A stretch of DNA of 64,000 nt from Callorhinchus milii (GCF_018977255.1 NW_024704742.1:17982001-18046000), one strand, 5' to 3'. Positions 3,555 through 23,400 are shown, numbered from the stretch's first letter. The notes: a model not told the origin generated them from the letters alone. Numbers and translations are program-made.

Positions 3555-4128
3555 CTGCAAAATAGCAGATTTAGAAAAGCTTTAATGAAAATGTGTTACA
3601 AGACCATCATTCAGTTAGAAATATCTTCATACAACAAATATTGGACATGGCGGAACCCATCTGATTTTCCATTGCTCATTTTTCATGCATTTCTATGTTA
3701 ACGTGATAAGGGTGACTGATTCTTTGATTTTTGGAATAATTCACCTGATATTTGTTACCCGTTTTGCTAAACACGTCCTATCACAGCACCTTTTCCCATC
3801 TTCCCAGAATCCTACGTGCATTCTGTTAATTCAATTAATAATGAGATTTAAATGTCCTGAACACTTACCAACCATCTGATGGAAGTCCCAGCATCTCACA
3901 CGCCTCCGCTATGTGACAGCTCAGCAGCAGACTCTGCTGCATACTGAAAATATACCTGCAGGTCTGTACCTTTAAGGGTGTAACTTACATGTCCCCAAAT
4001 CAAGGCAATTGACCCATGAAAAAAAGACAAGTCTACAAAACACTCTACAGTAATTCTTGTGAAGTATTTTGAGGTATGTAGACTTGAAGATGTGCTGCAA
4101 ATGATTAGAGGTAATTGAGAGCACTTAC

Positions 4129-4244
4129 TTTGTAGAGAATTGGTAGGCACAAGTTCAGGGTTGGTGGTCAGAGGTTGAGAGCACTTTTGGCAAATGCATT
4201 CCTTCCCATTAAAGGTCACTCGGTCTCCAGGTGGGAACGGCTGT
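4129..4244 (-). CDS. ABLIM2: ABLIM2 coding exon (exon 4 equivalent), end of LIM2 and linker
   Basis: ttcttatattcag|ACAGCCG...CTACAAA|gtaagt; 116 bp, phase 2-1. Encodes (R)QPFPPGDRVTFNGKECICQKCSQPLTTNPELVPTNSLQ. Confidence 0.95.
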
Positions 4245-5774
4245 CTGAATATAAGAAAAAAAATAAGAAATGAAAAAGAACAAAAATCAGATTAACGCTA
4301 CCACAAACCAATTCATTGCAGATTTAATATTTTATTGAAGAATCCCCTTTTGATACATGTTGAATGGTATTCCTACCAATTTAATACTTCAAGGCTTCAA
4401 GATTTTACATCAAACACATTTCTTTCTACTTTGGTGCTTTTTTTTTAGAACACGTGGATGTAGACTCAAATATTGGATACCTCTGATATTACTTGCCAAT
4501 AGTTACAGAAGACAGAATGAAAACAAAGATGTAATAACTGTTACAACCTCGTACACAGTCAACAATTTCAAGGATTTTATAGCATCACCCTGCAAAAATA
4601 GAAACACGTTTTTTTATTACATAATGGTTTCCTCAAACCCATTATTATTTTCTCTACTTGTATTCAGTTCTTTGTAAAAGATTTTCAAGTTGTCAATATG
4701 CCTTGCAGTACTGTATATCAACAGACAAAATAATGTGTGTGGCTTGCCTTATTTATTTAGAAACCATCCATTAACAGCACAAAAGGAAAAACACTGCTTT
4801 TATAGCACCAATTTACATGATTTTAATGATTTAAATGATTTTCAAAATATGAACTAAAACTGTTGTTTAAAAAAAAACTCGAACATGCAACAATAGCACT
4901 GTGTGGAAGAGAATAACAGGCAGCTGATGTTTTGGATTGATACAGAATGTTGAGACACAGCGGAGGAGCCTGAAACACTAGCAAAAGTGAACTTTTACTT
5001 TACATGGCAATACAGTAATGAGATTTAGGCCACTTTTTAAATGCGAACATTAATTCTCTTCAGATTGATGAAACGCAGCCATTTAAAGACAGTATTAGGT
5101 CAGGGCATTGCAAAACTCTAATTTGTATTAATTGCTTGTGACGTTCTAACGTCTTCCATCTGTGGTGGCTTCATTAATTATTACACCAGAAAAAAACTAA
5201 GGGCGATACTTTCTTTCATTAAAATAATCTGTAAGTAGCTGCGTTATTTAAAAGTATGCTATTGAAGTCTGCAGTAATCCAGAACAATGCAGTCTTTCTC
5301 TCATGACACCCTAACCCCCACAGTTGCTGTGTACTGTATTACTATAATACAAACATAATAAAAAGGTAAGCTTTCTTTTCTTAGCTTTCCAGTCATAAAA
5401 TAGTTCATTCTTTTACTCATGCACTCATGCATAGAGCAGATGAGTAAAATTGTAATAAGGATGTTTCAATGCACATTTTTAATAAGAGGTTTTGTAATTA
5501 CTAAGAGAAGAATTAACTGTTCACTTAGGAAAGTAAGATGAAAGCTACTTGCCCAAGGCAATGGCATTCTCCAAGGAGACTGAATGCTTTCTCAACACAG
5601 GATAATAACGTTTTATTAATATGATACATTCTATATTACATGATGCATTCGGATCAATTGAGCAAAATAAACATATGCATTGTTATTTCAGTGAAAGGAC
5701 CACTTATTTTTACTCTGCTGACCATTACCCTAAAATGTGATGCATGAGATACACCCTAATGCATATTCACAGTG

Positions 5775-6211
5775 TGATCCTCACCCTCACCTACAAGGCC
5801 ATTCACGGCCTTGCTCCCTCCTACTTCTCCGACCTACTATCCCCCTACCTACCCGCCCGTACCCTCCGTTCCTCTGGCTCCGGTCTGCTCCACATCCCCC
5901 GCCCCAACCGCCCTACTATCGGTGGCCGGGCCTTGAGCCTCTCAGCCCCTCGGCTCTGGAACTCTATCCCCAGTGCCTTCGCCGCTTCCTCCCTTTCCTC
6001 CTTCAAGGCCGGTCTCAAGACCTTTCTCTTCGACCGTGCCTTCAGCTCCCCTCTCGACTCTCTACCCCCTCCTCACTCCCTCCCTTCCCTCCCCTCACCC
6101 TGACCATTTCCCCCTTGCTCGGGTCCTGACCCAACTGTACAGCGCCTTGGGACGTCCTCCCGACGTGAAAGGCGCTCAATAAATGGAATCTTGTTGTTGT
6201 TGTTGTTGTTG
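5775..6211 (+). mobile_element. L2 3' fragment ending in (GTT)n
   Basis: ILTLTYKAIHGLAPSY...APRLWNSIP...FKAGLKTFLF; tail gggacgtcctcccgacgtgaaaggcgc followed by (gtt)n. Confidence 0.9.
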
Positions 6212-6227
6212 ATGTGGTGGTTTTGAT

Positions 6228-6270
6228 ATGTGTGTGTGTGTGTGTGTGTGCATGTGGGGGTGGGGGGGTT
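6228..6270. repeat. (GT)n microsatellite and G-run
   Basis: tgtgtgtg... run followed by ggggtggggggg. Confidence 0.9.
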
Positions 6271-7114
6271 TGAGTTGTTGTAGACATTTTGAGAACTCCA
6301 GGTACAAATTTTAATACCTGTGCAATTTACTATGTGCCTGGTTTTATAGTTATAAGACAAATGTTTGATCATCAAAGATTGCTGGCAAATCCTTTCAAGA
6401 GGTACCCTTAATGTGAAATACCATGAAAAACTTAGTTGTAGAGACCTAGACTGCCACTAAAGAAAATTGTCTGCTCAACTTGTTTGTTGCTAGTCACTCT
6501 CTCTTCCTATCCTTTAAACCTTAGAACTACTGGTCAAGGGAAGCTTGAGAAGTGATGTGTAAAGAATGGCTCTGCAAAGATGCTGTGAGGATACAGGATA
6601 CCATGAATGGGCACCAAGTATCTGGAGACAAATTCTCTGTTCTTTGATCCAATGATTAGTCCATTTCCTCAAAATCTACATTCAAATTATTCTTGATTAT
6701 TTGTATCAGGGATACATAATACTTCCCTACACAATTAACAGTCATTACACATTACAGTAAATCCTGTGAAGGCTTTGGGATGTCTTACCAACATGAAAAC
6801 CTCTTTGTCAAAATGCAAGGATTATTTATTAATAGTTTCCCATGTTGTGTATTGTTGGTTTATTGAGGAAAAAACACCAATCTTGATAACTCAAATAATA
6901 GGCCAAAGTTTATGTTTTTAAAGATAGCTTCATTGTATTTTTTCCCACAGAAATTTTTTAGGTTTTATTTGCACTTAAATGTTAGAGTTAAAATAGGCCT
7001 TAAAAAAGCAATACCAAACAACGAGGAGCACTGATACACTGATGCCCACTCTAACCTGAATCGATGTCCCTCTTCTCACCTTCTCCTCTTTTCTTCATGC
7101 TCTATATTACTGGT

Positions 7115-7385
7115 TATAATAATCCTGGCATTTTGATATAGCAGCTAATCACCACTTCGAGACTTCTCACAGCGCTTCACAGAATATACTGTACAGTGAA
7201 TTGACTGCATATTTTGTGGGCGAAACGCGGCAGCCAATTGCGCACAGCAATGTCCCAAAAACAGTAGTGGATTAGTGACCAAATTATTATTACTATTTTT
7301 TGAGGGAATTATTAGCCCCAGAAAAGCGATCCATCCTTCGACTAGTAATCGGTAACCTACTTACTGCTGGGTAAACAGAGGTGTG
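7115..7385 (-). mobile_element. Truncated SINE (variant with internal segment)
   Basis: gcagccaattgcgcacagcaatgtccc body and tail as in other copies. Confidence 0.8.
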
Positions 7386-7711
7386 GTTCCAATGCTTGTC
7401 TGGTAGAGGAAAACTAATGTATTTGCCCTGATCTAGAAAGTAGGCCCTTTGTAAGAATCATTATAGGAAGGATGTAGCTAAATATTTATTTCCATGTCAG
7501 TCACACCCATGATGATGCCTTTGCTATTTCAAATGCAGAAATGGAAATATCATCTAAAATCAGCCAACGACATCAGCTACAGTATTCATAGGGGTGGTAT
7601 AAAGGCACCTTGCGGAAATCATAGCAATTCATTATTTCAAACTAACAAAAGCATTTGTATCCCTTACAGATGCAATATGCTTATTGATATGGATAGGCAC
7701 ACTGCATTTAC

Positions 7712-8250
7712 TATCATAGAATCACAGAATATTACAGCACAGGAGGCTATTCGGCCCATCATGCCTGTCCCAGCTCTTTGGAGGAGCTTCCAAATCAGTC
7801 CCACTCCGCAACTCTTTCCAATCTTTTCAAGTATCTATCCAATTCACATTTGAGAGTTGTTATTGAATCCCCTGGTTACTGACCCATCTGCCAGTGGAAA
7901 CAGTTTCTCCCCATCTACTCTGTCAAAATCTCTCATAATTTTGAACACTTCTATTAAATCTCCCCTTAACCTTCTTTGCTCTAAGGAGAACAATTCCAGC
8001 TTCTCTTGTCTCTCCACATAGCTAAAGGCCCTCATCCCTCCTACCATTCTCGTAAATCTCCTCTGCACCCTCTCCAAGGCATGGAAATCCTTCCAAAGGT
8101 GTGGTGCCCAGAGTTGAAAACAATACTCCAGTTGAGGCCTAACCAATGACTTGTAAAGGTTTAGCAAAACTTCCTTGCTTTGGTACTGTATGCCTATACA
8201 AGGATCCCATATGCTTTTTTTAATAGCTCTATCAACCTGTCCTGTCATGT
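7712..8250 (-). mobile_element. CR1 3' fragment
   Basis: LYKSLVRPQLEYC...LERVQRRFTRM...LFSLEQRRLRGDLIEVFKI; tail atcatagaatcacagaat. Confidence 0.9.
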
Positions 8251-8679
8251 TCTAAGACCTGGAATTCAACATTACTTATTTACATAAAAATACCATACCC
8301 ATATACCAATGGAAGATTCAAAAATCTATTTTAATTAATATCATTAGGATCAGAGAATGCTTACGACAGAACAGGAAGTCACTTGATCCTGTATCTCCGT
8401 CAGTGCTAACTCCACTGTGGAGTTTTCTAATTACTTTCCCTGTTCCCATAATATTATTTTTTCCTCAAGTATTGATTCAATTCTCATTAAAATACCCAAA
8501 TTATTATAGATGAGTGAGTCAATGCAGAGGTCAAATACTCCCGAAGCTTCAATGTGCCATAGTCTTATCTCATAACCTGTTCCAAAGTTATTCCATTTTG
8601 GGGCAAATCTAGCTTCTACATCACTCAATTATCTTTTAATGTTTGCTTGTAGCATTGACAGCAAAAATTAGTTGGTGGG

Positions 8680-9370
8680 GTTTAGGAGGTCACAGAGGTA
8701 GGGAAGAGCAAGGCCATGGAGGGCTTTGAAGGTGAAGATCAGTATCTTGAACTGTATCCTCTGAATGATGGGGAGCTAGTGGAGCTGGACGAGGATGAGG
8801 TCATGGAGCCTGGAGTGGGAGAGGACACGGGCTGCAGAGTTCTGGATGATCTGCAGATTGTGGAGAGAGCAGTTGGGGAGGCCAACAAGCAGGGAGTTTG
8901 CGTAGCTGAGCCTGGATGTGATGTATGCGTGTATGAGGATCTCGGCAGGCTGCGGTGAGAGTCATTGGCGGAGCTGGGCAATATTGCAGAGGTGGGAAAT
9001 GGCAGAGCCGGTCATTGCACAGCTGTGGAGGATGAAGACAGTTGAGAGTCGAACAGGACACCGAGGTTCTGAATTGGCTCCGTGCGATGTAGAGTGCATC
9101 CATGGAGGGAGATGCTCTCAGCGCCCGAGATATGGAGGTGCTGACGGGAGACAAGCAGAAGGTCTTCTTGACATTCAAATGGAGAAGGTTAGCTCTCATT
9201 CCAGCACTTAATGTCCGAGAGGCAGTCTTTGAGGGTGAGTTGGGACGTCTACGGATGATGTCACCAAGGCATGTAGATGTTGAAAAGGAGGCGACCAAGG
9301 ACAGAATCCAAAAGAATGCCACATGTGACGGTGCGGGGGCTGGCGGAGAAGCCATTAGTGGAGACAAACC
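8680..9370 (-). mobile_element. L2-clade LINE internal fragment
   Basis: Visible similarity to 10260-10990 and 41520-42300 (ggagaggacacgggctgcagagttctggatgat). Confidence 0.85.
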
Positions 9371-9934
9371 AGTATGATTAATGTGGTATAAATTTATGCT
9401 TGTGCACATTATACCCATTAAGTATTGCTGCACAGCTGTAAGATTAAAGCTGAATTCAATAACATGCCATTGACTATTTCTCCAACACAGTAATTTGAAA
9501 AGGTCACAGGAAACATTTATTTAAAACATAATGAGCAGTGATAATATGAAAAAAATAATGATTGCTTATGAAGTAATTTCAGACCGTGAAATAAATAATA
9601 TTTAGCCAAACAATGAGCAACAACCTCACAATTTCTGAACTACTAAAACAAACTAAACTTGCCTACATTTGATTATCATTCATTTGAGGGATGGAGAACA
9701 GTGAGGCCAGGGCACAGACAGGAAGGACAGTTCTTTGAATTCCTTGATGTCCTTACCTGTTAAGCATCCCATCTCCCTCCCTAATGTAATGTAATTTTAA
9801 GCTCCCATCACACTTTTATGCAATGTGCAATGGAGCTATACCCAGACCACCCAATTGCTAAATATACCTATAAAATGGTGCTCCTCCTCCAGTACTGAGA
9901 GACGCTATTCTGCATGTTTCACAATAAAAAACCC

Positions 9935-11730
9935 ATTACATTTGCATAGCGCCTTTCATGTTGGGAGGACGTCCCAAGACGCTGGACAGTCACTGTTTTG
10001 GACCCGAGCAGGGGGTTGGGATTGGGGAGGGTGGAGGACAGCGGGGGAGATCGAAAGCATGGTCGAAGAGGAGGGTCTTGAGATGGGCCTTGAAGGAAGC
10101 AAGGGAGGGGGTGAGGCAGAGGGATTGCAGGATGGAGTTCCAGAGGGTGGGGGCAGAGTGGCAGAAGGCTTGCCCGTCAATGAAGGGGTGGGCAAGGCGG
10201 GAGAAGCAGGCCAGAGCCTGCTGAGTGGAGGGAGCCAGCAGGTTGGTAGGGGGTTAGGACGTCGCAGAGGCAGGGGGAGCAAGACCATGGAGAGCTTTGA
10301 AGGTGAGGACCAGGATCTTGAACTGTATCCTCTGAGTGTTGGGAAGCCAATGGAACTGGGCAAGAATGGGGGTGGTAGGGTTGCGGAGCCTGATGAGGGA
10401 GAGGACACAGGCTGCAGAGTTCTGGATGATATGCAGCCTATGGAAGGAGGAGTTGGGGAGGCCGACAAGCAAGGAGTTTGCACAGTCAAGCCTCGATGTG
10501 AATTTACGAGGGTTTCTGTGGCCTGCGGTGTGAGACAGTGGCTGAGCTGGGCGATGTTGTGGAGGTAGGGGAAGGCAGAGCGGGTTATGGCATGAATGTG
10601 GGGTAGAAAGAATAGTTGAAGGTCAAACGAGATGCCAAAGTTCCGGACTGTCTTAGTAAGATGGAGTCGCTTCCATGGATGGTGATGCTGTCAGCGCCCG
10701 AGGTGTGGAAGCGCTGACAGGAGCCAATCAGGAGGGCCCCGGTCTTGTTGACATTCAACTGAAGAAAGTTAGCTCTCAGCCAGGATTTGATGTCTGACAA
10801 ACATTCTGTCAGGACAGTAGTGGTCCTGGAGCCAAGGGTAGAGGCAGAAAGGTTTAGTTGGGTGTCATGTGGAAGTTGACCCCATGTCTGCAGATGATAT
10901 CACCAAGAGGGAGTATATAGATATTGAAGACTTGAAGACCAAAGCACTGATCCCTGAGGAACGCTGCAAGAGACAGTGCAGGGGCTAGAGGATAAACCGT
11001 TTGTGGAGATGAAATGGAGGCGTGTGAGAGGTACGATCTGAACCAGTCAAGAACAGAACTGTGAAGGTTGAGGTGAGATGAGAGGTGGTGGATGAGGATA
11101 GAGTGGTCAACGGTGTCGAAGGCAGCAGAGAGTTCAAGGAGGACGAGGAGGTAGAGGGAGCCCTGGTCGCAGATGGACAGAATGTCATTTGTTACTTTGA
11201 CTAGGACTGTTTCTGTGCTGTGGGCAGCACGAAAACCCGATTGGAGGGGTTGTGAAGGGAGTGGCGGGAGAGGAAGAAGCGAAGAAAGGGAGGTTGGAGA
11301 TGGGGCTGTAGTTTGAGAGCAGAAATAGGTCCAGCGTGGGTTTTTTAAGGGTAGGAGTGATGAGATGGGATGGGAATGGTGCCAGTGGACAGTGAGAAGT
11401 TTATGATGTCTCTGAGTAGGGGGCAAGGAGGTGGAGCTTGGAGGTAAGGAGAGGGGTAGGGATGGAGTCGAGTGAGCCTGTGGTCGGTTTCATGTGGGTT
11501 ATATTGGTGATGAGAGAGGAGTGTGAGACAGCTTTGAAGGTGTGGAGGGAAGGATGGATAAGGGCTGGGGTGAGATGGGGAGAGCATAGTAGATGGAAGG
11601 GCAGAGGCAGCTGAGTGGATCCCCTCGACTTTGGATTCGAAGAAGTCCAGCATCGCCTCGCAGTTGGCATTGGAGCTGAGGATGGGCGAGGTGTGAGAGG
11701 GTGGAGAGGAGCCTGGGGTTAGCCTACTCC
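9935..11730 (-). mobile_element. L2-clade LINE fragment (RT and 3' end)
   Basis: [37 protein letters not shown]; same 3' terminus as the 41179 copy. Confidence 0.9.
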
Positions 11731-11762
11731 TTCAGCCTCCATCATGTTCTGAAGCTTGATGT

Positions 11763-12270
11763 TTGCCTACAGTGTGGTTCAGTTGGTCTCGCAATCTTGC
11801 CTCTCGAGTCTGAAAGTTGTGGGCTCAAACCCTTGGAACTCATACAGTATAAACTGATACTGCAATACAATGCTGTGGTGTGCTGCATTGTCATTCTGAG
11901 TACCATCCTTCAGATGAAACGTTAAACCAAGGCCTTGTCTGTCTGTTCAAATGGACGTTAAAGATCCCATAAAAACAGAAGTCGCTGGGAACACTCAACA
12001 GGTCAGACAGCATCGAAACAGAGAGGAAAATAAGTTAACGTTTCAGGTCAATGACCTTTTGTCACGTTTCATGTTGATGAAACTATTTGAAAAGAGAAGG
12101 GAGTTTATCGGGGTCCTGACCAACAGTAAGGCAAACACTGCTGTGCACAATTTGTCTGCTGCATTTCACCCACAAATATACAGTCAATTCACGATAGTAT
12201 ATTCTGTGAAGCACTTTGAGCCGTCTCAAAGACGTGAAAAATGCTATATCAAATGCAAGGATTATTATTA
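11763..12270 (+). mobile_element. Deu-domain-type SINE interrupted by a ~100-bp unrelated repeat fragment
   Basis: Core cttcagatgaaacgttaaaccaaggccttgtctg...ggacgttaaagatcccat / actatttgaaaagagaagggagtt resembles the DeuSINE central domain as recalled; same L2-like tail. Confidence 0.7.
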
Positions 12271-13849
12271 TATAATGGAATGCAATGAATATTGACAACG
12301 TTCCTGAAAAATAAGTGCCCTTACACTTTTAGGCTGATAGACCAGAGAACTATTCAGGATTCAGAATAGGGGTCATTGCTTCTGTACTCAGAGAAACGAA
12401 GAGTTGCATTCACTTTCAAGTTGAATATCTATTTATTATGGATATCGGATACCTTCGACCGCTTCATTTGATTTCTTGTAAATGCTACCTTCCCTCACCG
12501 TGAAGTCTGGATTAATTTGCCTTTCTAGTATGGCATAACTTAAAATGACTGCTGGTTTAGAGTTAAGTCTCTGATACTGGTTGAAGGGTTGGCTGTTCTT
12601 GTCTCATTTGGTTACTGTAGTTTTGAGTTTTTAGTTCATGGTGGAGCAGGAACACTCTTTCCAAAAATGGGTTGTGTCACACTCAGTTCAGTCACTGGGA
12701 ATATCTGTGGTGGAGCAGAAGCTGTATCTGCAGCACAAACTATTAGTGTAATTTTCCTGTATTATTGGCTGAGTTCCCTTTTTTAAATTATTCAATAGCA
12801 AATGAGACCGATGCTGCAATGATACCTTGGGATCAATTGCACAATTACAATGTCCCCTATCTATCAACCTTGTAAATTGACCACTTGGCAATGTCCCTTT
12901 ATATAACCAATTGTTCACATGCCATCAGCACTGTCAGCTACTGGAAATGTGAGAATATTGTGGAAAACATAAAACCCCATAAATCCCATATTTGAAACAT
13001 CCAAGGAAGCTACTTTTATTTGCCGAGTCAACAGAGTGAACAAGGAATACAGAGAGCAATAACATTTACCAACGCTTATAGAACCATGACTGGTATTCAG
13101 ACACCCGGTGATCAATCAATTGTCTCAGCAAATAGTTGACGATCATAATGATTAGCTGTGAAAATGCAGAGGTACTTAAAATAGACTAAAATAAACCAAT
13201 GGTGGCTATGTAAATGATAGGGAGTGAAAGTTAACCCAAAACAGGCTTTAAAGATACGCTGAAACAGCAGACCAAGAGGTCACATGTTCAGAGAGTTGTG
13301 AAGGACAGTTTTAGGGCAGCCAACAGGGAATGCACAGCCATGGACAGCCAGTGTGGTGCTGTATTGGGAATATGGTAGGGTTGGTATCCTGAAAGGTTGA
13401 GATCAAATTGACCCAATTCTTCATTCAAACCTCTCTTGTCAATTTAATTCTGACAAACTGAAATCCCTACTATTATTATCAACATCCTCTAATCTCCTTT
13501 ATTTGCCTAAACTCTCCTTTTCAGTTTAAGATAGAGGTCAGTAGTATTTACCAATTAACGTTTCTAACATCTAATATATACTGCTCACAAACTGCAACTA
13601 AATACATTTGGGGCGCAGAGGCATGCTAGAAAATAGAAAATTCTGCATGCAATATTTTAATATTACTTAATTATAATTTAGTTATAATATTATAATCATG
13701 GCCTTGTGATAACCAATGACTACTTTTGATGTGATCATAGCTCCAGTGATAATCACATCTTGCTTTTCCCCCACTTTGGGTGCATATTTCAACCTTGAGC
13801 GTTACAAGTAATTATTGCAATTGAGGTTAAAGGAGTAAATTCTCTCACA

Positions 13850-13898
13850 TACATTAATAATAAACAAAAGTCATGTTGCTGCTTTCTGTGGGTTTAAT
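13850..13898 (-). terminator. Candidate polyadenylation site of the KPNA4-like gene
   Basis: ATTAAA at 13898-13893 on the minus strand, CA dinucleotides ~10-20 nt downstream, then U/GU-rich TTTTGTTTATTATTAATGTATGTG. A second ATTAAA lies at 13966-13961. Confidence 0.4.
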
Positions 13899-14058
13899 CG
13901 TTATCCTGGAGGAGCAAATCCAAGTTTGGATACATTTACATACAACTGTGCACACTTTGATTTAATCCTGCAGAGAAGTAAATTGTGATTGAGCACAATG
14001 TTTTGTGATGCTTGATTTCAATGCAGGACTCCCGAAACAATGCCTTGTATTTTTTCTT

Positions 14059-15609
14059 TTAGAATTGAGTGCCATTTTCTGGGTTGTCTGTTGAAGAACT
14101 GAAAACAGGTTTGTCATCTTGCATTGCTTCTGGGGCCGGGGTAGACTCTTCATTTTCATCTGATGTCAACTGATCAAGGATGTCATAGGCCATCCTATAG
14201 ATATCCTCGTTTTCATGGAGTTGGAGCTGGTCAATCATTTGCAAACCTCCGCATTCTTCAATCTGGTGTGCTATGAGTTTCGTTTTATCGGTCGCTGTAT
14301 TAAGGATGTTACTTATTCCCTCGAGTACCACTAAAATTATCTGTGGGTCCACCATTGTAAGCAGGCTACAGAATGGAAATATCACATTCTGGTGGACCAG
14401 ATAATCAATCTGATCTTTTTGGCCAGAATTAGTTAGATTCGCTATCAGCCAAGCAGTTTCTTTCTGAACAGCAAAATCACTTTTGTCCATGAGATTTATA
14501 ATGAGAGGAATAAGGTTAGCATTGATCACGGCTTCTTCTTGTTGCTGGTTCCCGGCAGTCACATTGGACAGAAACCATGCTGCGTCCTTATTGACTTTTG
14601 TGTTCGGATGAGTGAGTAATGCTTGGAAGTGAGAAAGAGCTCCACAATTCAGGACTACTTGTGCTTGCTCATCAGTGCCCGTTACAATATTTCCTGCGGC
14701 TCGCAATGCTCCAGTCTGAACACTGATATCCTGGTGGCTGAAAAGCGGCACCAAGTAAGGAACTACTCCTGAATCTATAATCATCTGGATTTGTTCATTA
14801 TCACCATCTGTTATGTAGGAAAATATCAAAACCGTGTCTATCAAGATAGCAGTATCAGAGTGGTGGATAAGAGCACACAACTCTGGAAGGATTTCCTGTA
14901 CAACATTTTGGGATAAGGAAGGGTCCTTCCGTCGGCAGATATTTAGAATTACCCATGTGACTGTGCGAACAAAACTGAGGGACTTGGAAGGGTTGATGCA
15001 TGAAAGTAGCGGCTTTATCAACCCCAGGCCAATAATATAATCTCTAAATTTAGGCCCATCACTGATGATGTTGCCGATGGTCAGAAGCGCCTGTTCAGCA
15101 ACTTCCTCATACGTGGAGTCCAGCAACTTCAGGACAGATGGGACCACATTTGCCGTAATCACAGCTTCTGTGTTTTCAGCGGGACCATAAGCTATGTTTG
15201 CTAAAGTCCACGCTGCCTCTAGCTGTAACACATGGTTGTTGTCCTGTTGTATAAAGTGCACCAGAATTGGAAAAAATCCAGATTTGGTTATATCTTGAAT
15301 TGGTGGACCATAATTACTAGACATAAGTTCTCTGGCAGCTTTCAACCCACAGAGTTGAAGGTCTCGGTTATTGCTGGAAGTATTTCTTATGATTTCTTCT
15401 AGTGATGAGTTCTGGATTTTAAAGTCACTATCAAGCTCAGTATCTTCATCCCCTATTGGAACATTCCTTCGCTTTAAAAAGTGTTGGTCCCTTTTGATCT
15501 TTCTTAGTTCCACAACCAGCTCATTCTGTTGTCGTCTCACAGTCTCTAGATCACGCCCTTTTTTCTTGAAATTCCTTAGCCTTTGATTATCCAGTTTATT
15601 GTCTGCCAT
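14059..15609 (-). CDS. Intronless importin subunit alpha (KPNA4/importin-alpha3-like) retrogene, 516 aa, nested in an ABLIM2 intron
   Basis: Single uninterrupted ORF from ATG at 15609 (Kozak GAAAATGG) to TAA at 14059. N-terminus [25 protein letters not shown] with KRRNV, ARM repeats, IEECGGL...[10 protein letters not shown] and terminal ..QF are all colinear with KPNA4. No symbol given because it is a paralogous copy, not the multi-exon KPNA4 locus. Confidence 0.93.
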
Positions 15610-16415
15610 TTTCTTGCAGCTCGTTAGCGCCGATGGGTCGGTTTTAAAGAAAGACAAACAAATTAAAATGCCGTTAGGTTTTCTGTCCAATATTTCAAAA
15701 GCTTCTCTGGAATGGGTCACTCATTCTAACTTCTAAATGAAACAGAAGTGAATCACGACAATTTCAGAGATCATGATATTACTGCGAGGACTGTACAAAT
15801 AACAAATATGAAGTGGTGTTAATTCAAAGGACTCCCTCCTACTTACTTGCCTATGGCTGAGACTAGACTGTCATCACCTCAGCATTATGACAACATCTAA
15901 ATCAAGTCCCCCAACCAATCATACTTTATATTTCATCATAAGGATCGAGTTTTTCACTGCAACTCTTAGATTGGTTTGTGAAGGGCAAACCAATCAACCA
16001 GCTGGTAAACACTGCTCCTACTTAGTTAGAGCCTTTCAGTTTGGATGAGAAGATATCACAATTTCAAGACATCTTTCAAGACTAAAGAGCTCTAGCTTGT
16101 CCAATTACTGTTCATAGCTGATTTCTCTAATAATGGGGATCATCCTTGTTGTTCTCTTCTACACTGCCTGAATGTCATGGGAAGCCCCTTATATTGCAGT
16201 GACTAGAAATGTAATGCAGCACTCTTGGTTCAGCCTGATCAAAGCGCAATATAGCTTGAGAATGACATCTGGATATCTGACCTCTATTGATTTGGCAATA
16301 TAGCCCACCATCAAGTTTGCCTCATATTATTTGAATATGGCGAGCGATGAGTTAACTAACATCTAGATCTTTTTCTTCATGGTTTGTATGTGTGTCAGAC
16401 ATCTGGCTTACAGAA

Positions 16416-16484
16416 CCAGTAACCAAAAATCCTACAGCACCAGTAACCCAAAATGACTTACAGTAACCAAAAATCCTCTGGCAC
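16416..16484. repeat. Three imperfect copies of a ~22-24-bp unit
   Basis: cagtaaccaaaaatcct / cagtaacccaaaatgac / cagtaaccaaaaatcct. Confidence 0.7.
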
Positions 16485-18761
16485 AATTTTTATTCCTGTA
16501 GCTGTTCTACTGAGTTTTGCTTTTGAATCTCTCGTGTCATAGTGTCACTGTTAATGACATTGAACGTGGTATTCCTGGTGTCTAATGTTTCTGTAAGGAG
16601 AGTAGGAAAATTTGCTTTTCTTTCAGATGAACAACCAATGAATGATGGATGGAATATCCTTAGGAAAAAGACTGTTTAGTGTACAATGGTGCCAATTTGC
16701 CAAGTTAGCAAGTCAGTGATTTTACCCATGTTTAATTGGACTCATAACAATATAAACAAAACTGCAATGATTCTATCCCATGGCACTATTGGAAAAGAGA
16801 AGGGAGTTTCTCCCAGTGTTCTGGCCAACAAATCCCCCAAATGAAATTGGCCACTCACTCAATGACTTGTTTATGGGACACTGCTGTGCACAAAACTGGC
16901 TGTCGCATTTCACACACAAACATACAGTAATTAATTCCACTTTACAGTATATCCTGTGAAGCACTTTGAGATGTCTCAATGATGTGATAAAGAACTATAT
17001 CAAATGCAAGGATTATTATTGCTATAAAAAACACAACATAAAAATTTCACAAAACTGACAAAGTATACAAAGAGAGATTATATTTAGCAGTAGCGATACA
17101 TTCAGTGTGCCCTGGGTGACATCACTGAAAAAATGACCTAACAAAGCATTTTTGAGCTGAGCTGATAATTCTGAATCACTGAGCCACACCAGGTGTCTGC
17201 TCAGTCTTGAAGTATATTTGTCCCAGAAAATGTTTTCAGCTGACAAAGACCAACCTCAATTAGGATCTTGTACTGCATGAAAATTGGTCGAAGCTGCTTT
17301 ATTAAAAGCTATTTTAACAACAGCAACTTGCCTTTATAGAGTGCCCTTCACATAGGATTACATCTTGGAATGCTTGGTCACTAATGCAAGAGGCATTTTC
17401 TGACAAGAATCTAGCAAATAACAAAATATATTTGAGAAGTAGCAACCACCTGGGTCTAGAATTATTCTATTTACTTGACAGTTCATAGGGTAAATTTTGT
17501 AAATTTGGTATTTTGTAAATTGGAATTTGGTAAATTGGTGAATTTGGTTAAGCTGTTTTTTTTGTACTTCCCAAAAGAACTGGCTTCTGAATTAAGGTTA
17601 TATTCAAGAATTTGTCAATTTCTTGACACTAGAATACTAAATAAATCGAATAAATCTTAGATCTGGGAAGAATTTCTCCCCCATTGTCTATTCCCATTTG
17701 TATTGGATATGTGTCATAAAATGGATGATTCCTTACATTTACCTTTACATTTGAGGCTTCCTCTCCCAATATAGCTTTTAATCTGAGGTGGAAGAACAGC
17801 TAAAGGACAGTCATGTCAATTGAGCAAATTTTGAATTCCATCAAATCTACTGCATGCTTTAGCAGCCATGTTTCAACGGATTCTAATAAATTGTGCATTT
17901 GAACTCCTGTCCACATCGGACAGAGCTCAGGACACCATCATTGTCTGGGGAAGTGTTCCAAATACAGGAGATGTTGCATAAATATTTCAAATTGGCTTCT
18001 GGAGGCCGCTTGGATTCATAGACCTCCAGCACTCCTGTGTTCCTGCCATAATCAAACAGATGTTTCAACCAGAAAATGTATCAAGGTTTTTCTTGGATGT
18101 TGCACTCACTGAGGCTATTTTTCTAATTCTGCCACTATTCTTGTCTCTGCTACACACATGTGGTACATTCCTCACTGTGGTAAACACAACAACAAAAAAA
18201 CACTGAAGTAAACAAAAATAAAAAAAAACATAAACCCAATGCCATCAACTCCAAAACCAGTTTGTAATCTGATTCATTATAAACTTATTGTGAATACTCC
18301 CCTGATAGTTCAGTTGCATTGGTACTGCTATCTAATCTAACAATAATAATAATAACTGATATCTAATATGTGAGTTTTGCTAATCATATGTAAATATAGG
18401 AACACAATGCGAATTAAGAACTATTGGAAAGGAACACACAATTATTATTTTTTAATTTATTTAAAAAGTTAAAGGCATTTCTGATTCCCTCCGCACACAT
18501 ACTTGCTATTTTTTGATTAGACACGTGTCCGACACATGTGAAAACCCATCACCTTGCTTAAAACTATCCAAACCAATCCAATCCAAATGCCTACGTATTG
18601 TTGCCATATGTTGCAAATTATCCCCCACTGTTTATATGTCCAATTTAAATTCAGCCATGCTGTACCAGCTCTGGGAATATGCAGGAAACCAGCCAATCCA
18701 CACCGGAAATCAGAGTGCACTTACCGTAACCACATGTCCTCAGAATACCCATGCTCTAAGG

Positions 18762-19092
18762 AAACCTCTAGCCTTATAATGGGGTCACTCTGCAAAGCAG
18801 CCAGGGTTTTACTCCAACCTCTCTGCTGAATACTGTGCGAGAATGTGGGATTGTGTGTTTGTGTATGTGTGTGCATCGAAGTGTACCCTGGTGCAGAGAA
18901 GATTGGGCACAGTGACACCCACTGTCCGCAATGGTCATTTGGGGGATTATACTGTTGGTTGGATGCACGGCTTGAACCTGTGGACCTTTCTACCAGCATG
19001 GATCAGCTTTTTCAAAATAAGAAGTCTGAACATATGAAGCAGTAAAATCTTGGCTGCTTTGCAGAGTGATCTAATTATAAGGGTAGAGGTTT
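18762..19092. repeat. 52-bp inverted repeat pair (MITE/foldback-like)
   Basis: 18762-18813 versus the reverse complement of 19041-19092: 46/52 identical by manual alignment. Confidence 0.8.
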
Positions 19093-20306
19093 GTGATCCT
19101 GAGATACGAGGGCTGGAGGTCACCATCTCAAGCTTCAGACTCTGGGACAGGGAAATGTTTCAATTCTTGGGCGTCTGCACAGGTGATCTAGTAACCTGCT
19201 GGAGACCTCAGGACACAGTGAGTGCAGGCTGACTGTATCTGGTAAAAGGGCATTGCAAGGTTATATCTTGGATATTCTGTGATTCTGTCTGCAGGCGTTT
19301 AATGCGCCAGAGAAATGGATTTTAATGCTGTTCTATTCTTGTTTCAAGGGCCTAAATAAGATGTAAGGCAGCTCTTGGCAAGAACGAGAAGGATATTATG
19401 TGCAGACACACAACAGTGGCATTTGAGGCTTTGTTACAGTAAATATAGGTCATGAAGCACTTATTCCCACTAAACGCCTGTCGTCAACATAACCCTCCTC
19501 TTTCTATGGTTCCTAGATTAATTCTACTTAGAATTTGTTTTGGACCCTTGCAAGTTGCTAAGCAACAGCATAGCATCTGTGAAGAAATGAACCTGTCAGT
19601 GGGATGGTCATACATAGGTTGAGTATTGCTGATTGTATTAGTACTGTGGGACCTACAATACAACAACAAATTGTGTTGTTATAGGGCCTTCACGCATGGT
19701 TTGTTCCTTATTCTTGAGAAGGAATTCCCTTTTCATTTTGCCCAAGGTAAGAACACCTTGAACACTTGGGCACTGCAGGTTGGGTGTGAGTTCAATCCAG
19801 GGAAAAATCACATTGAATTGAAACCAAAAAAAAGCCATTTGATTTCCATTTTAGATCATTGGAAACTGGTACAATACAATGAGTTCAAATCGTCATTTAA
19901 TTCACAACATTGCAAAATTTAATTTGGAGAGAAGAAGACAGCAAAATGATCCTGGATGTGTCAGTGCAAATGTAAACTAAAGATCATGTTGTATAAAAGA
20001 GATAATTTTTTGCATTAATTGGGACCAGCTCTATACACAGATAATTGGTCATCAGGCGAAAAAAATTGGCTATGATGCTAACCAAAAAGTTTTTCCGTCA
20101 GGAGCTACACCATACACGGTAGACCCTTACTGCACGCTTCACTCTCTCGGCCACTCATTTTGCCAATTATTTCTCTTCAACTCTCCGAGCACCTCTCAGA
20201 GCAACTTCAGCAACTGTGAAGGAGAGGGAGGGACCTATCACAATAAGGGTAATAAGCAAGTTCCCCTTTGCCATTCCCCATCATTTTATGCAGATGTTTT
20301 ACTTAC

Positions 20307-20490
20307 CTGCAAACAGCACACACAAAGCACTTTGGGTGGTAGGTCTTCCCCAAAGCTGACACCACCTCGCCCTCTATAAATTCATTGCAGCTGAAGCAAC
20401 GTGTCCCATACAGTCTCTGATAGTCAGCGGTGCAGATATATTCCCCTCGCCTCACAAAAAATCCACCTTCGGCCAAGTCACATCCACACA
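20307..20490 (-). CDS. ABLIM2: ABLIM2 coding exon (exon 3 equivalent), end of LIM1 and start of LIM2
   Basis: ttctctccag|TGTGTGGA...TGCAG|gtaagt; 184 bp, phase 1-2. Encodes CGCDLAEGGFFVRRGEYICTADYQRLYGTRCFSCNEFIEGEVVSALGKTYHPKCFVCAVC, nearly identical to recalled ABLIM2. Confidence 0.96.
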
Positions 20491-23400
20491 CTGGAGAGAA
20501 AAATAAACATAGAAAGAGGTCAATCCAAATCTCAAACCAGTCTTATATTGCCAGGTAAGTCCCAACGTTTTGATCTGGGTATATTTTTTCAATCCCATTT
20601 AAAATTTTGTTCACCTCAATGAGGTCCCTTCTGGATCGTCTTCCCTCAAGACTCAACTTGCCTAGTCATTGCTCATAGCTCATTCATTAGGGATCATCCA
20701 CATTGCTTTCCTCTGTACCATCTCGAAGACCTAGGCAACCCCATTATTTTGTGGTGATTAAAACTGTTTGCAGTATTCAGGGTGCAGTCTATACCACCTG
20801 AGAACGACGTCTGGGGATCTAAACTCGACTGATTTAGTAATATAGCCCAGCATCCTGTTTGCCTTGTTTACTGTTGCCTCACATTGTTTTGAGATAGTGA
20901 ACTTCACAGTAAAGGCTGTGAAGCGCTTTGAGACATCTTTGTGATGTGAAACAGGATATCTGATAGAGGTAAGGCCAACACATCTACCAGATGATAGAAA
21001 TGTAAGTAGCTAAATGAGCAAATTTAATAACCGTTGGTGGTAGCAATTCCTCCTGCTACCAACAATCTGAAAATCATATTCTTTGTACAAAAGCATTATA
21101 CAAAGAAGGCTGTTGTGGAAAATCTTATTTCCAATTAATCAGAGGCACAATGGACTGGTATAATGGAGTGCATAATACTGAGGATTTTCTTTCCTTTAAA
21201 CTAGCAGTTCAAAACTTGATATTGGTTTTATATTTAATATTGATTAGGGCAGTAATGTGGAATCAGTGGCATTAATGTGGAAACATTGGTATAGAAACAT
21301 AAACATTTTCAGGACAAAAGGAGACCATTGTGTGTTTTTACAAAGAATACACAGCACAGAAACAGACCACTTGGCCCATCCAGTCTGTGCCAGTGTTTGT
21401 ACTCCACACAGGTTGTCACCTTCTATTCCTCTCTCCTTCATGTGAAGTACTAACTTCCTCTTGAATTCAACTATCACTTCAGGCAAAGATGTTAATCCCA
21501 CTTTCCCCATATCCCTTGATCTCTTTATTTTTTGGGTGCTTATTTAGTTTCCTTTTAAATGATCCAGTCTTATGAAATCTACCCTAAAGACCTTCTGGGG
21601 GAAGAAGTTCCTTTTAACTTGTCCCCCAATATTTATACTAACAATCCTGAGACTGTTCCCTCATCACAATTTCTCCAACTGAAGGATGTTGTTTTTCTCT
21701 ATTTTGTTCAACCCCATTAGTTTTTAAACACCTCTTTCATATCCTCTCTTAATCTCCCCTGTTCCCTTGAAAACAATCCTCAAATTAGTCATCCTCGTTT
21801 CATATGTCAATTGGCATCAACCTCGTGAATTTCTATTGTACCCTCTATAAATCTAAGAGTGAACAAACTAAAAGTGAACAAGTTATTCCAAATGGGATGT
21901 ACCAATATCTGATACAATTCCAACATGTTTGGGTTGAGGAGAAAATTAAGAAAGCAAGAGTAAAAGACCTTCTCCGTTGAGAAAGAAATGATAGACGAGT
22001 AACAAATAAATGTGCAATTTTGTTTTTAAACATATTATTCTTGAGTTACAAAAATATTTACAATGACACAACTAGTAACAAACCTCAGCTATCAAGTATT
22101 CCAATTTTACAATTCAGAAATGAGGATAGTGGGAGCTGAATTAATGGAATGCTGTATTGGATTAGTACAGAACAAAGACCCTTTTTGTTATTTACTAGAA
22201 CTGAAAAGGCTGGTTGCACACAGCAATTAATTCCATTGCTGTGCTTTACTTTGACATCCTATCTCCAACAGTATGTTAAATTCCTCTATTAGATGAACTT
22301 AGCAATAAAAAACACTTACCAAATAATGCATGTTAAAAATATCAACACCAATCTGTCCCATAATTTACTCAAAACAATTTATGCTGGTGTCCAGCTTCTT
22401 CAAACAAATGCTTGTCAGTGGCAACATTTTGTTTAGTTACAAAAAATAGTTCCCAAGTACTGCATGTCAAAATGGTAATTGACATACACAACTGGAGGTG
22501 CTTAACTGTATCACACTGCTGAGCAGAATGAAGTTTGATGGTGTAACATACGCACTTCATCAACATTAATGCTGCCACAAGACATGATTTATTGGAAACT
22601 ATTCCTCACATTTATCCCCCTACACAGCTTTTTTCACTGGCAGCTGATTGCTGGTAATAGCAAGAAAGATGTTTTTTCAGAAACCAGTTTTACAGCTTTA
22701 ATGCCTGGTGAGGGAATCTGATTATACACCCACTGACAACGAGTAAGGGGTTAAATTCTTGGGGTGGAATGGGCAATCATGCCAATAATAAATCTGTCAA
22801 TTATCTATGCAGGTCATTTTCCTCTTAAAATTAAAATTAAAGATTAAAATATGTAAATGACCGAGCTTTGGGCTATTTGGATGTAATATATTAGAATTAT
22901 ATGGTCTACCTTGAGTTGGCCCTATCTCCAGTCTCACTTTCTAAATGGATTGGTACTTCCGCAAACTTGGCAGCAATGTTACACTTCAGTCCCTTGGACG
23001 CCAATTGCTTATGGTCAGCATTGATGGAAGAGGAAATGCAATCTAGGATTAGTCCAAGAGTAATATCTTGGCATATTGTTAAATTATACTGTAAAATATG
23101 TTGGCTGAAATTATGTACCTCACTGTAAATAATTTTCACAATTTCTGCTAAGTCATGGCATGATCTGCTCTGCTTGTGTCAGAGATTTGTTTTAATGAGT
23201 CTGCTGGCTTCATGTACTCACCAGATGTTGGCAAATTTCAGCCTTTTGAAAGCATTTGTGAGATTAGATAATAAATCTATCGATACTAGAAAACAAAAGA
23301 TCAACTATAATAAATTGGGCTTGCTTCACAAATCATTGTATTTGGTTACTAGATTTAATCTCATCCAGCACCCACTGACATTTATCCTCTTCTCATTAAT

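Follow-up and report, generated by a model that had tools for sequence, protein, structure and literature searches.

What is an importin-alpha reading frame that has no introns doing inside the ABLIM2 gene of the ghost shark? We addressed this question in a stretch of 64,000 nucleotides of Callorhinchus milii (GCF_018977255.1 NW_024704742.1:17982001-18046000), hereafter referred to as the window, in which such a frame lies on the minus strand. The possible answers range from a copy in decay, through a redundant spare, to a gene with a function of its own. Importin-alpha paralogues determine which proteins enter the nucleus in which cells, and vertebrates are usually credited with seven of them. 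Taken together, the evidence makes it quite probable that the frame is a working KPNA4 retrogene, which has resided in or beside ABLIM2 since before the chimaera/elasmobranch split and is now a specialised import adaptor. A further subtype across all cartilaginous fishes would offer a natural experiment on how far the groove that binds nuclear localization signals (NLS) can change while the adaptor survives.

An initial annotation of the window had described an intact, intronless frame of 516 codons with a strong Kozak context, and our scan of the open reading frames (ORFs) agrees on each of these points. The frame runs from ATG to stop without an intron or an internal stop codon, and its start codon is embedded in aaaATGG (A at -3, G at +4). 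It is the sole ATG-initiated ORF of at least 100 aa between positions 13000 and 17000, and the stop-to-stop frame around it (14059..15720) comprises 553 aa. Pfam profiles recognized an importin-beta-binding (IBB) domain followed by armadillo (ARM) repeats (PF00514, E 1.2e-61, 6 stretches scored) and by the C-terminal Arm_3 (PF16186, E 1.7e-18). The best solved structure is that of human importin alpha-3 (KPNA4, chain 5tbk_A), aligned over residues 1-516 versus 1-521 with an E value of 2e-212, and the fold is certain because the identity to this full-length structure reaches 61%. In the alignment the IBB domain retains its basic clusters and the KRR autoinhibitory motif (LKRRNV); a basic stretch of 17 residues and LKRRNV itself line up with the canonical rows, and a deletion of 2 residues relative to KPNA4 is found past the domain. 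Both the N-terminus (11 residues compared) and the C-terminus (..QF) follow KPNA4. Compared with the canonical KPNA4 proteins of mammals, birds, frogs and teleosts, the product is 59-62% identical, slightly more than the roughly 55-60% estimated initially, and the few short in-frame indels noted at that time are indeed present. Judging from this domain content, the ORF product is a complete importin-alpha with IBB, ARM repeats and C-terminal Arm_3. Coordinates of all features are collected in Table 1.

Table 1. Features of the importin-alpha ORF and its surroundings, in positions of the window.
Feature	Position	Strand	Basis
Importin-alpha retrogene derived from KPNA4, ORF and stop codon	14059..15609	-	ORF scan, Pfam, structure alignment, genome search
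IBB (importin-beta-binding) domain, aa 10-87	15349..15582	-	Pfam PF01749, E 9e-16; alignment
ARM-repeat superhelix and atypical C-terminal Arm_3, ~aa 93-493	14131..15333	-	Pfam PF00514, PF16186; PDB alignment
Codon 28, Gln in the IBB (Arg in canonical proteins)	15526..15528	-	alignment; available text of preprint 10.1101/2021.10.25.465662
Codon 176, Leu replacing ARM3 Trp (KPNA4 W179), middle Trp of the major NLS site	15082..15084	-	alignment, 17/17 clade sequences; Trp roles from the available text of PMC3946659
Codon 261, Leu replacing ARM5 Trp (KPNA4 W264)	14827..14829	-	alignment, pattern count
CpG-rich 200 nt upstream of the ATG; candidate promoter or 5'UTR	15610..15810	-	CpG observed/expected
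Intron drawn by public protein model P0123	13359..14105	-	protein comparison
3' flank homologous to the KPNA4 3'UTR of the same genome	13781..13946	-	66% identity, 178 aligned columns, E 7e-14
ABLIM2 exon with LIM-domain sequence, 5' of the host intron	20306..20491	-	100% to public ABLIM2 protein
ABLIM2 exon with LIM-domain sequence, 3' of the host intron	4130..4246 (lower edge approximate)	-	maps to public ABLIM2 protein

The surrounding gene was identified by placing the public ABLIM2 protein on the window, which yielded minus-strand exons at 46720-46520, 20491-20306, 4246-~4130 and 3555-3427. Consistent with this assignment, all of the 120 matches listed for the exon piece 20303-20542(-) were ABLIM2 or unnamed ABLIM-type proteins. 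Since ABLIM2 exons at 20306 and 4246 flank the ORF, it sits within an ABLIM2 intron of 16 kb and shares the strand of its host, as the initial annotation had proposed. A search of the C. milii genome (991 Mb, 1762 contigs) returned a second, identical copy of the ORF on contig C44, with the frame open on both. This copy was ruled out as a second paralogue: 20 kb of C44 match positions 6002-26044 at 99.87-99.96% in inverted orientation, as is the case for an uncollapsed haplotig. At 624,212 bases, C44 is thus an uncollapsed haplotig of the ABLIM2 region that was kept in the assembly. In the public annotation, one ABLIM2 isoform is recorded separately on a contig with the same length of 624,212 bases, so that gene counts are doubled for this region.

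Where did the copy come from? Besides the ORF, the genome harbors three loci of the KPNA3/4 type, all of them multi-exon: KPNA4 on contig C11 (94% identity to the public ghost-shark KPNA4 over the matched parts), KPNA3 on C4 and a KPNA3-like gene on C15 (93.6% identity to a bamboo-shark "alpha-4-like" protein). The KPNA4 locus contains 16 colinear blocks, distributed across 11.3 kb, whose DNA aligns with the ORF at 65-83% identity; in the ORF these separated blocks are joined in one frame, so that 15 parental gaps (introns) are gone together. Homology continues into the 3' flank, where ATTAAA at 13898-13893 aligns with the AATAAA of the parental KPNA4, and the 5' flank has no similarity to the KPNA4, KPNA3 or KPNA3-like loci of the C. 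milii genome. Synonymous difference to KPNA4 is unsaturated (pS 0.607, dS 1.24). KPNA3 as the parent was ruled out by the tree, in which the KPNA4 clade received 100/100, together with a saturated synonymous difference to both KPNA3-type genes (pS 0.78-0.79). The collapse of 16 exon blocks, the homology to the KPNA4 3'UTR and a synonymous difference that is unsaturated only to KPNA4 identify the ORF as a retrocopy of KPNA4, in keeping with the retrogene origin suggested initially. Inspection of the flanks also bore out the reported absence of a poly(A) remnant, with no tract past the ORF and no target-site duplication remaining. The copy is not the single multi-exon positional KPNA4 orthologue, which is found on C11; as the copy in ABLIM2 is intronless and KPNA4 lies separately, the retrogene is a paralogue of KPNA4 rather than KPNA4 itself or its replacement.

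Two observations concern the KPNA3-type genes and their public models. The gene at C15:10507865-10519361 groups with the bamboo-shark 'importin alpha-4-like' protein (100/100), and the pair is sister to C. milii KPNA3 plus bony-vertebrate KPNA3 (88/77); it may represent an extra KPNA3 paralogue of cartilaginous fishes. The public ghost-shark 'importin subunit alpha' P0056 seems chimeric by eye, with an N-terminal half that is KPNA3-like and a C-terminal half that is letter for letter the KPNA4 sequence of P0053.

The proteins closest to the retrogene product were not KPNA4 but automatically named "importin subunit alpha-3-like" proteins of 515-519 aa with 64-69% identity. A cluster look-up assembled a clade of 17 sequences, all full length, which comprises the C. 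milii ORF, a public ghost-shark variant, 13 named elasmobranch species and 2 further assembled sequences. The named species are whale, epaulette, zebra and white shark, two bamboo sharks, two cat sharks, sawfish, devil ray, stingray and two skates, and the frame is intact in all 13. In a maximum-likelihood tree of 28 rows, 6 representatives formed a 100/100 clade within the 100/100 KPNA4 clade; the retrogenes are thus not placed outside the described importin-alphas, yet they constitute a distinct and long-branched subclade of KPNA4. Branching inside it, with C. milii first and then sharks and rays together, reproduces the species tree. The same clade is defined by 41 alignment columns that are invariant in 15/15 canonical KPNA3/4 rows, spanning acorn worm to mammals, and invariant but different in 15/15 elasmobranch copies. 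At these columns the C. milii copy has the derived residue in 27 cases, the ancestral residue in 6 and another residue in 8. The clade signature was absent from all 114 other proteins examined.

Linkage to ABLIM2 is equally widespread. In 12 of the 12 elasmobranch species for which both genes are listed, the retrogene and ABLIM2 lie on contigs of identical length, including a scaffold of 146.6 kb in one catshark. Their identifiers, which serve only as a proxy for the order of the genes, follow each other directly in 3 species and are 12 and 21 apart in two others. Because of the intact orthologues, the species-tree clade and the ABLIM2 linkage, the insertion is placed before the chimaera/elasmobranch split. 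The crown age of Chondrichthyes is about 400 million years or more, and vertebrate retrogenes this old that are still linked to their host gene are rare. Approximately unbiased (AU) tests rejected neither a union of the retro clade with chondrichthyan KPNA4 (p 0.55) nor a single clade of all canonical KPNA4 with the retro clade outside (p 0.59), and so the trees accommodate an insertion before or after the bony-vertebrate split equally well. If retroposition predates that split, as these values would allow, the gene would be ancestral to jawed vertebrates and lost in bony vertebrates. The initial annotation had considered a lineage-specific, undescribed import adaptor. Our literature search, which covered openly available papers, returned no description of a chondrichthyan importin-alpha retrogene or distinct subtype, but the gene occurs throughout Chondrichthyes instead of in a single species and is already in public databases under the automatic name "importin subunit alpha-3-like".

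We then turn to the residues in which the clade departs from its parent. Canonical KPNA3/4 proteins carry six groove tryptophans, at KPNA4 positions 137, 179, 222, 264, 348 and 390. Those of ARM3 and ARM5 are leucine in 17/17 clade sequences. Among the 114 other KPNA3/4-type proteins, the ARM3 tryptophan was found in 112 and the ARM5 tryptophan in 113, the remaining 2 and 1 having missed the search pattern. The tryptophans of ARM2, ARM4, ARM7 and ARM8 and all five asparagines are retained in the clade, leaving the minor NLS site (ARM7-8) complete and the major site (ARM2-4) without its middle tryptophan. According to the available text of PMC3946659, the P3 and the P5 pocket of the major site each have one wall made up by the ARM3 tryptophan; KPNA4 W179 was tentatively equated with mouse W184 by motif spacing (42, 43 or 47, 126, 42). 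A third change affects the IBB, in which codon 28 encodes glutamine in 16/16 aligned clade rows and arginine is present in 15/15 canonical KPNA3/4 rows. These substitutions predict altered NLS recognition. The glutamine also bears on a published comparison, given that the available text of preprint 10.1101/2021.10.25.465662 describes "KPNA4 in Callorhinchus milii" as having Gln where an IBB arginine is otherwise fully conserved, a residue that it connects with CAS binding. In our alignment the true ghost-shark KPNA4 has arginine at that position and Gln matches codon 28 of the retro copy, so the preprint, as far as its available part goes, appears to have used the retro copy as ghost-shark "KPNA4". 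Its case would illustrate how the automatic name "alpha-3-like" invites confusion with KPNA4.

Having established what the ORF is and how old it is, we weighed other accounts of its origin and persistence. The absent poly(A) tail and target-site duplication would be accommodated by an old duplication of KPNA4 as DNA, followed by the loss of every intron, or by cDNA contamination of the assembly. Such accounts would have to explain how the 15 gaps that separate the 16 exon blocks of the parent all disappeared together, why the copy is surrounded by unique intronic DNA on two haplotigs and why its orthologues lie on chromosome-scale contigs beside ABLIM2 in 12/12 species, and we give them almost no credence. 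A more serious proposition is that the gene was functional in the chondrichthyan ancestor and still is in elasmobranchs, and that the C. milii copy is in decay with a frame open by luck. The C. milii end branch is long, at 0.37 the clade's fastest as compared with 0.02-0.08 for the elasmobranch tips, and Tajima counts gave a significant excess over sharks (76 C. milii-only versus 34-36 shark-only changes, p <= 2e-4), with 71-74 versus 46-53 against rays (p 0.011-0.11). In addition, C. milii has changed 30 residues that vary neither between acorn worm and mammals nor in any elasmobranch copy, and no sequencing run containing the stretch is on record as RNA. Even so, these 30 changes are fewer than the variable columns would suggest: C. 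milii-only changes occupy 30/197 columns invariant elsewhere versus 48/164 variable ones (Fisher p 0.0014), so that invariant columns are avoided. The 78 C. milii-only replacements are conservative as well, with a mean BLOSUM62 score of +0.74 versus -0.48 +/- 0.17 for random single-base changes, a value reached in 0/5000 simulations. For each unit of neutral divergence, 57.7 changes in the frame would create a stop, and with indels left uncounted the probability of no stop is 0.056 at 5% neutral divergence and 0.003 at 10%. Chance does not explain the open frame at these probabilities, the first of which applies at merely 5% divergence on a branch with about 0.37 amino-acid changes per site. 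Both haplotigs carry the open frame, and the copy keeps 27/41 clade-defining states, the four remaining groove tryptophans and every asparagine. Decay would therefore fit only if the release from selection were very recent, and we consider it unlikely.

The initial annotation had argued for an old retrogene kept by selection rather than a processed pseudogene, and this is the picture that emerges from 17/17 intact frames, spared invariant columns and conservative replacements. On the whole path between the retrogene and KPNA4, dN/dS is about 0.25 and not near 1, a crude estimate by the Nei-Gojobori method on 436 codon pairs from local matches (dS 1.24). Because KPNA4 itself hardly changes, the retro lineage alone would have a dN/dS of roughly 0.4-0.5. 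These rates and the column counts indicate purifying but relaxed selection, most relaxed in the C. milii lineage. Selection for what is a separate matter, as the copy could be a redundant spare KPNA4, or could be kept for a role other than import (spindle, membrane, chromatin), with tryptophan-to-leucine changes of little effect on NLS cargo. In favor of this reading, the domains are all in place, most contact residues are preserved and binding is a prediction from sequence. However, a redundant copy would hardly have persisted in each of the lineages sampled while carrying 41 fixed differences at positions where the 15 canonical rows never vary, the lost tryptophans are invariant in 112-113 of the 114 other KPNA3/4-type proteins, and the available text of PMC3946659 has the ARM3 tryptophan lining the major-site pockets. 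We judge redundancy or a role outside import to be improbable.

The working, specialised adaptor that we favor could have come about as follows. A processed KPNA4 mRNA would have inserted in or beside ABLIM2 before the chimaera/elasmobranch split and would have been retained as a working gene ever since, alongside an unchanged KPNA4. Its IBB would pair with importin-beta and autoinhibit, the ten-ARM groove would bind cargo and the C-terminal region would serve recycling. In the stem of the clade the groove would have been remodelled by the replacement of the ARM3 and ARM5 tryptophans by leucine, and the IBB by that of arginine by glutamine. Loss of the ARM3 tryptophan is expected to remove one wall of the P3 and P5 cation-pi pockets in the major NLS site. 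Classical monopartite NLS binding at that site would be weaker and the cargo range shifted, with the adaptor leaning more on the intact minor site, and autoinhibition may possibly be weaker too. Importin-beta binding, altered specificity and the site of expression are what we infer from these features. A bolder proposal, which we put forward tentatively and think somewhat less likely to be right than wrong, is that of an eighth vertebrate importin-alpha subtype: a KPNA4 retrocopy would have entered ABLIM2 no later than the base of Chondrichthyes, the major NLS pocket of the copy would have been rebuilt, and the product would carry distinct non-classical cargo, perhaps with a germline or embryo role like KPNA7 and the fly alphaKap proteins.

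Comparison with known systems helps to place the gene. It resembles KPNA4/importin alpha-3 in domain order, in the full-length alignment to 5tbk_A and in its position within the 100/100 KPNA4 clade. In contrast, the KPNA4 of the same genome has 16 exon blocks and the retrogene no introns, and canonical KPNA4 is >90% identical across jawed vertebrates, whereas the retrogene, at 59-62%, evolves many times faster. The nearest functional parallel is KPNA7 (importin alpha-8), likewise a divergent extra importin-alpha beside a conserved parent. The available text of PMC2929220 reports that KPNA7 fails to bind the SV40 and nucleoplasmin NLS; changed NLS binding is thus measured for KPNA7 and proposed from sequence for the retrogene. 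KPNA7 differs in belonging to the alpha2 subfamily (KPNA2-type) and in not being a retrogene, while the present gene is of the alpha3 subfamily and retroposed. KPNA7 is also a vertebrate paralogue, and the present retrogene was found here only in cartilaginous fishes. In origin, the nearest parallel is provided by the Drosophila duplicates alphaKap4, alphaKap5 and alphaKap2, described in the available part of PMC8645118 as RNA-mediated, fast-evolving importin-alpha copies. As far as that text goes, the fly retrogenes are of recent origin, are gained and lost rapidly, show testis enrichment and in many cases come without an IBB, whereas the chondrichthyan copy has retained this domain and dates back to crown Chondrichthyes.

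Public records and reads also cover the gene and its flanks. The public protein model P0123 is the same as the ORF for aa 1-501 and is then joined to positions 13358-13314, which adds an unrelated tail of 15 aa. Its splice leaves codon 501 at the donor 14105 for 13358; the family C-terminus is kept by the unspliced ORF instead. Among the sequencing runs listed, 8 entries from 3 studies contain part of the stretch, none of them being on record as RNA, with run kinds that are estimates. Contigs of 4 of the 12 listed runs (X1-X4) were aligned to 12000-21000, where they extend over ORF and intron alike. In run X4, depth was 8.9 over 13204-13504, which contains the alternative terminal exon 13314-13358, with no cover in 13505-14106, although gaps in cover carry no weight as evidence. 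A spliced isoform using 13314-13358 might conceivably be real. A contig of 2065 nt from run X1 spans the whole ORF (13729-15793), but says nothing on transcription because the surrounding intron is covered at like depth. Run X4 also contains a record of 167 nt whose aligned part ends at 20307, the edge of an ABLIM2 exon, which suggests spliced RNA, and one contig of 236 nt within the ORF (14132-14367), a weak hint. Upstream of the ATG, the CpG observed/expected ratio is 1.03 over 200 nt, compared with 0.13-0.20 further out. This CpG-rich segment is a possible promoter or 5'UTR, again by way of a weak hint.

Apart from the genes, this part of the window contains repeats. A wide DNA search of the genome with positions 4000-21000 returned nothing but interspersed repeats. 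One of them, at 9922-11714, is a high-copy interspersed element with at least 38 copies scored on many contigs, at 73-84% identity over up to 1.8 kb, and it sits in a stretch with a G+C content of 0.53 and a GC skew of +0.42. Short elements of very high copy number were found at 12000-12271, 16775-17020 and 20916-21000, and each of the four runs gave summed contig depths there of between thousands and about 100,000. These three sites are connected by numerous contigs, as for dispersed SINE-like repeats.
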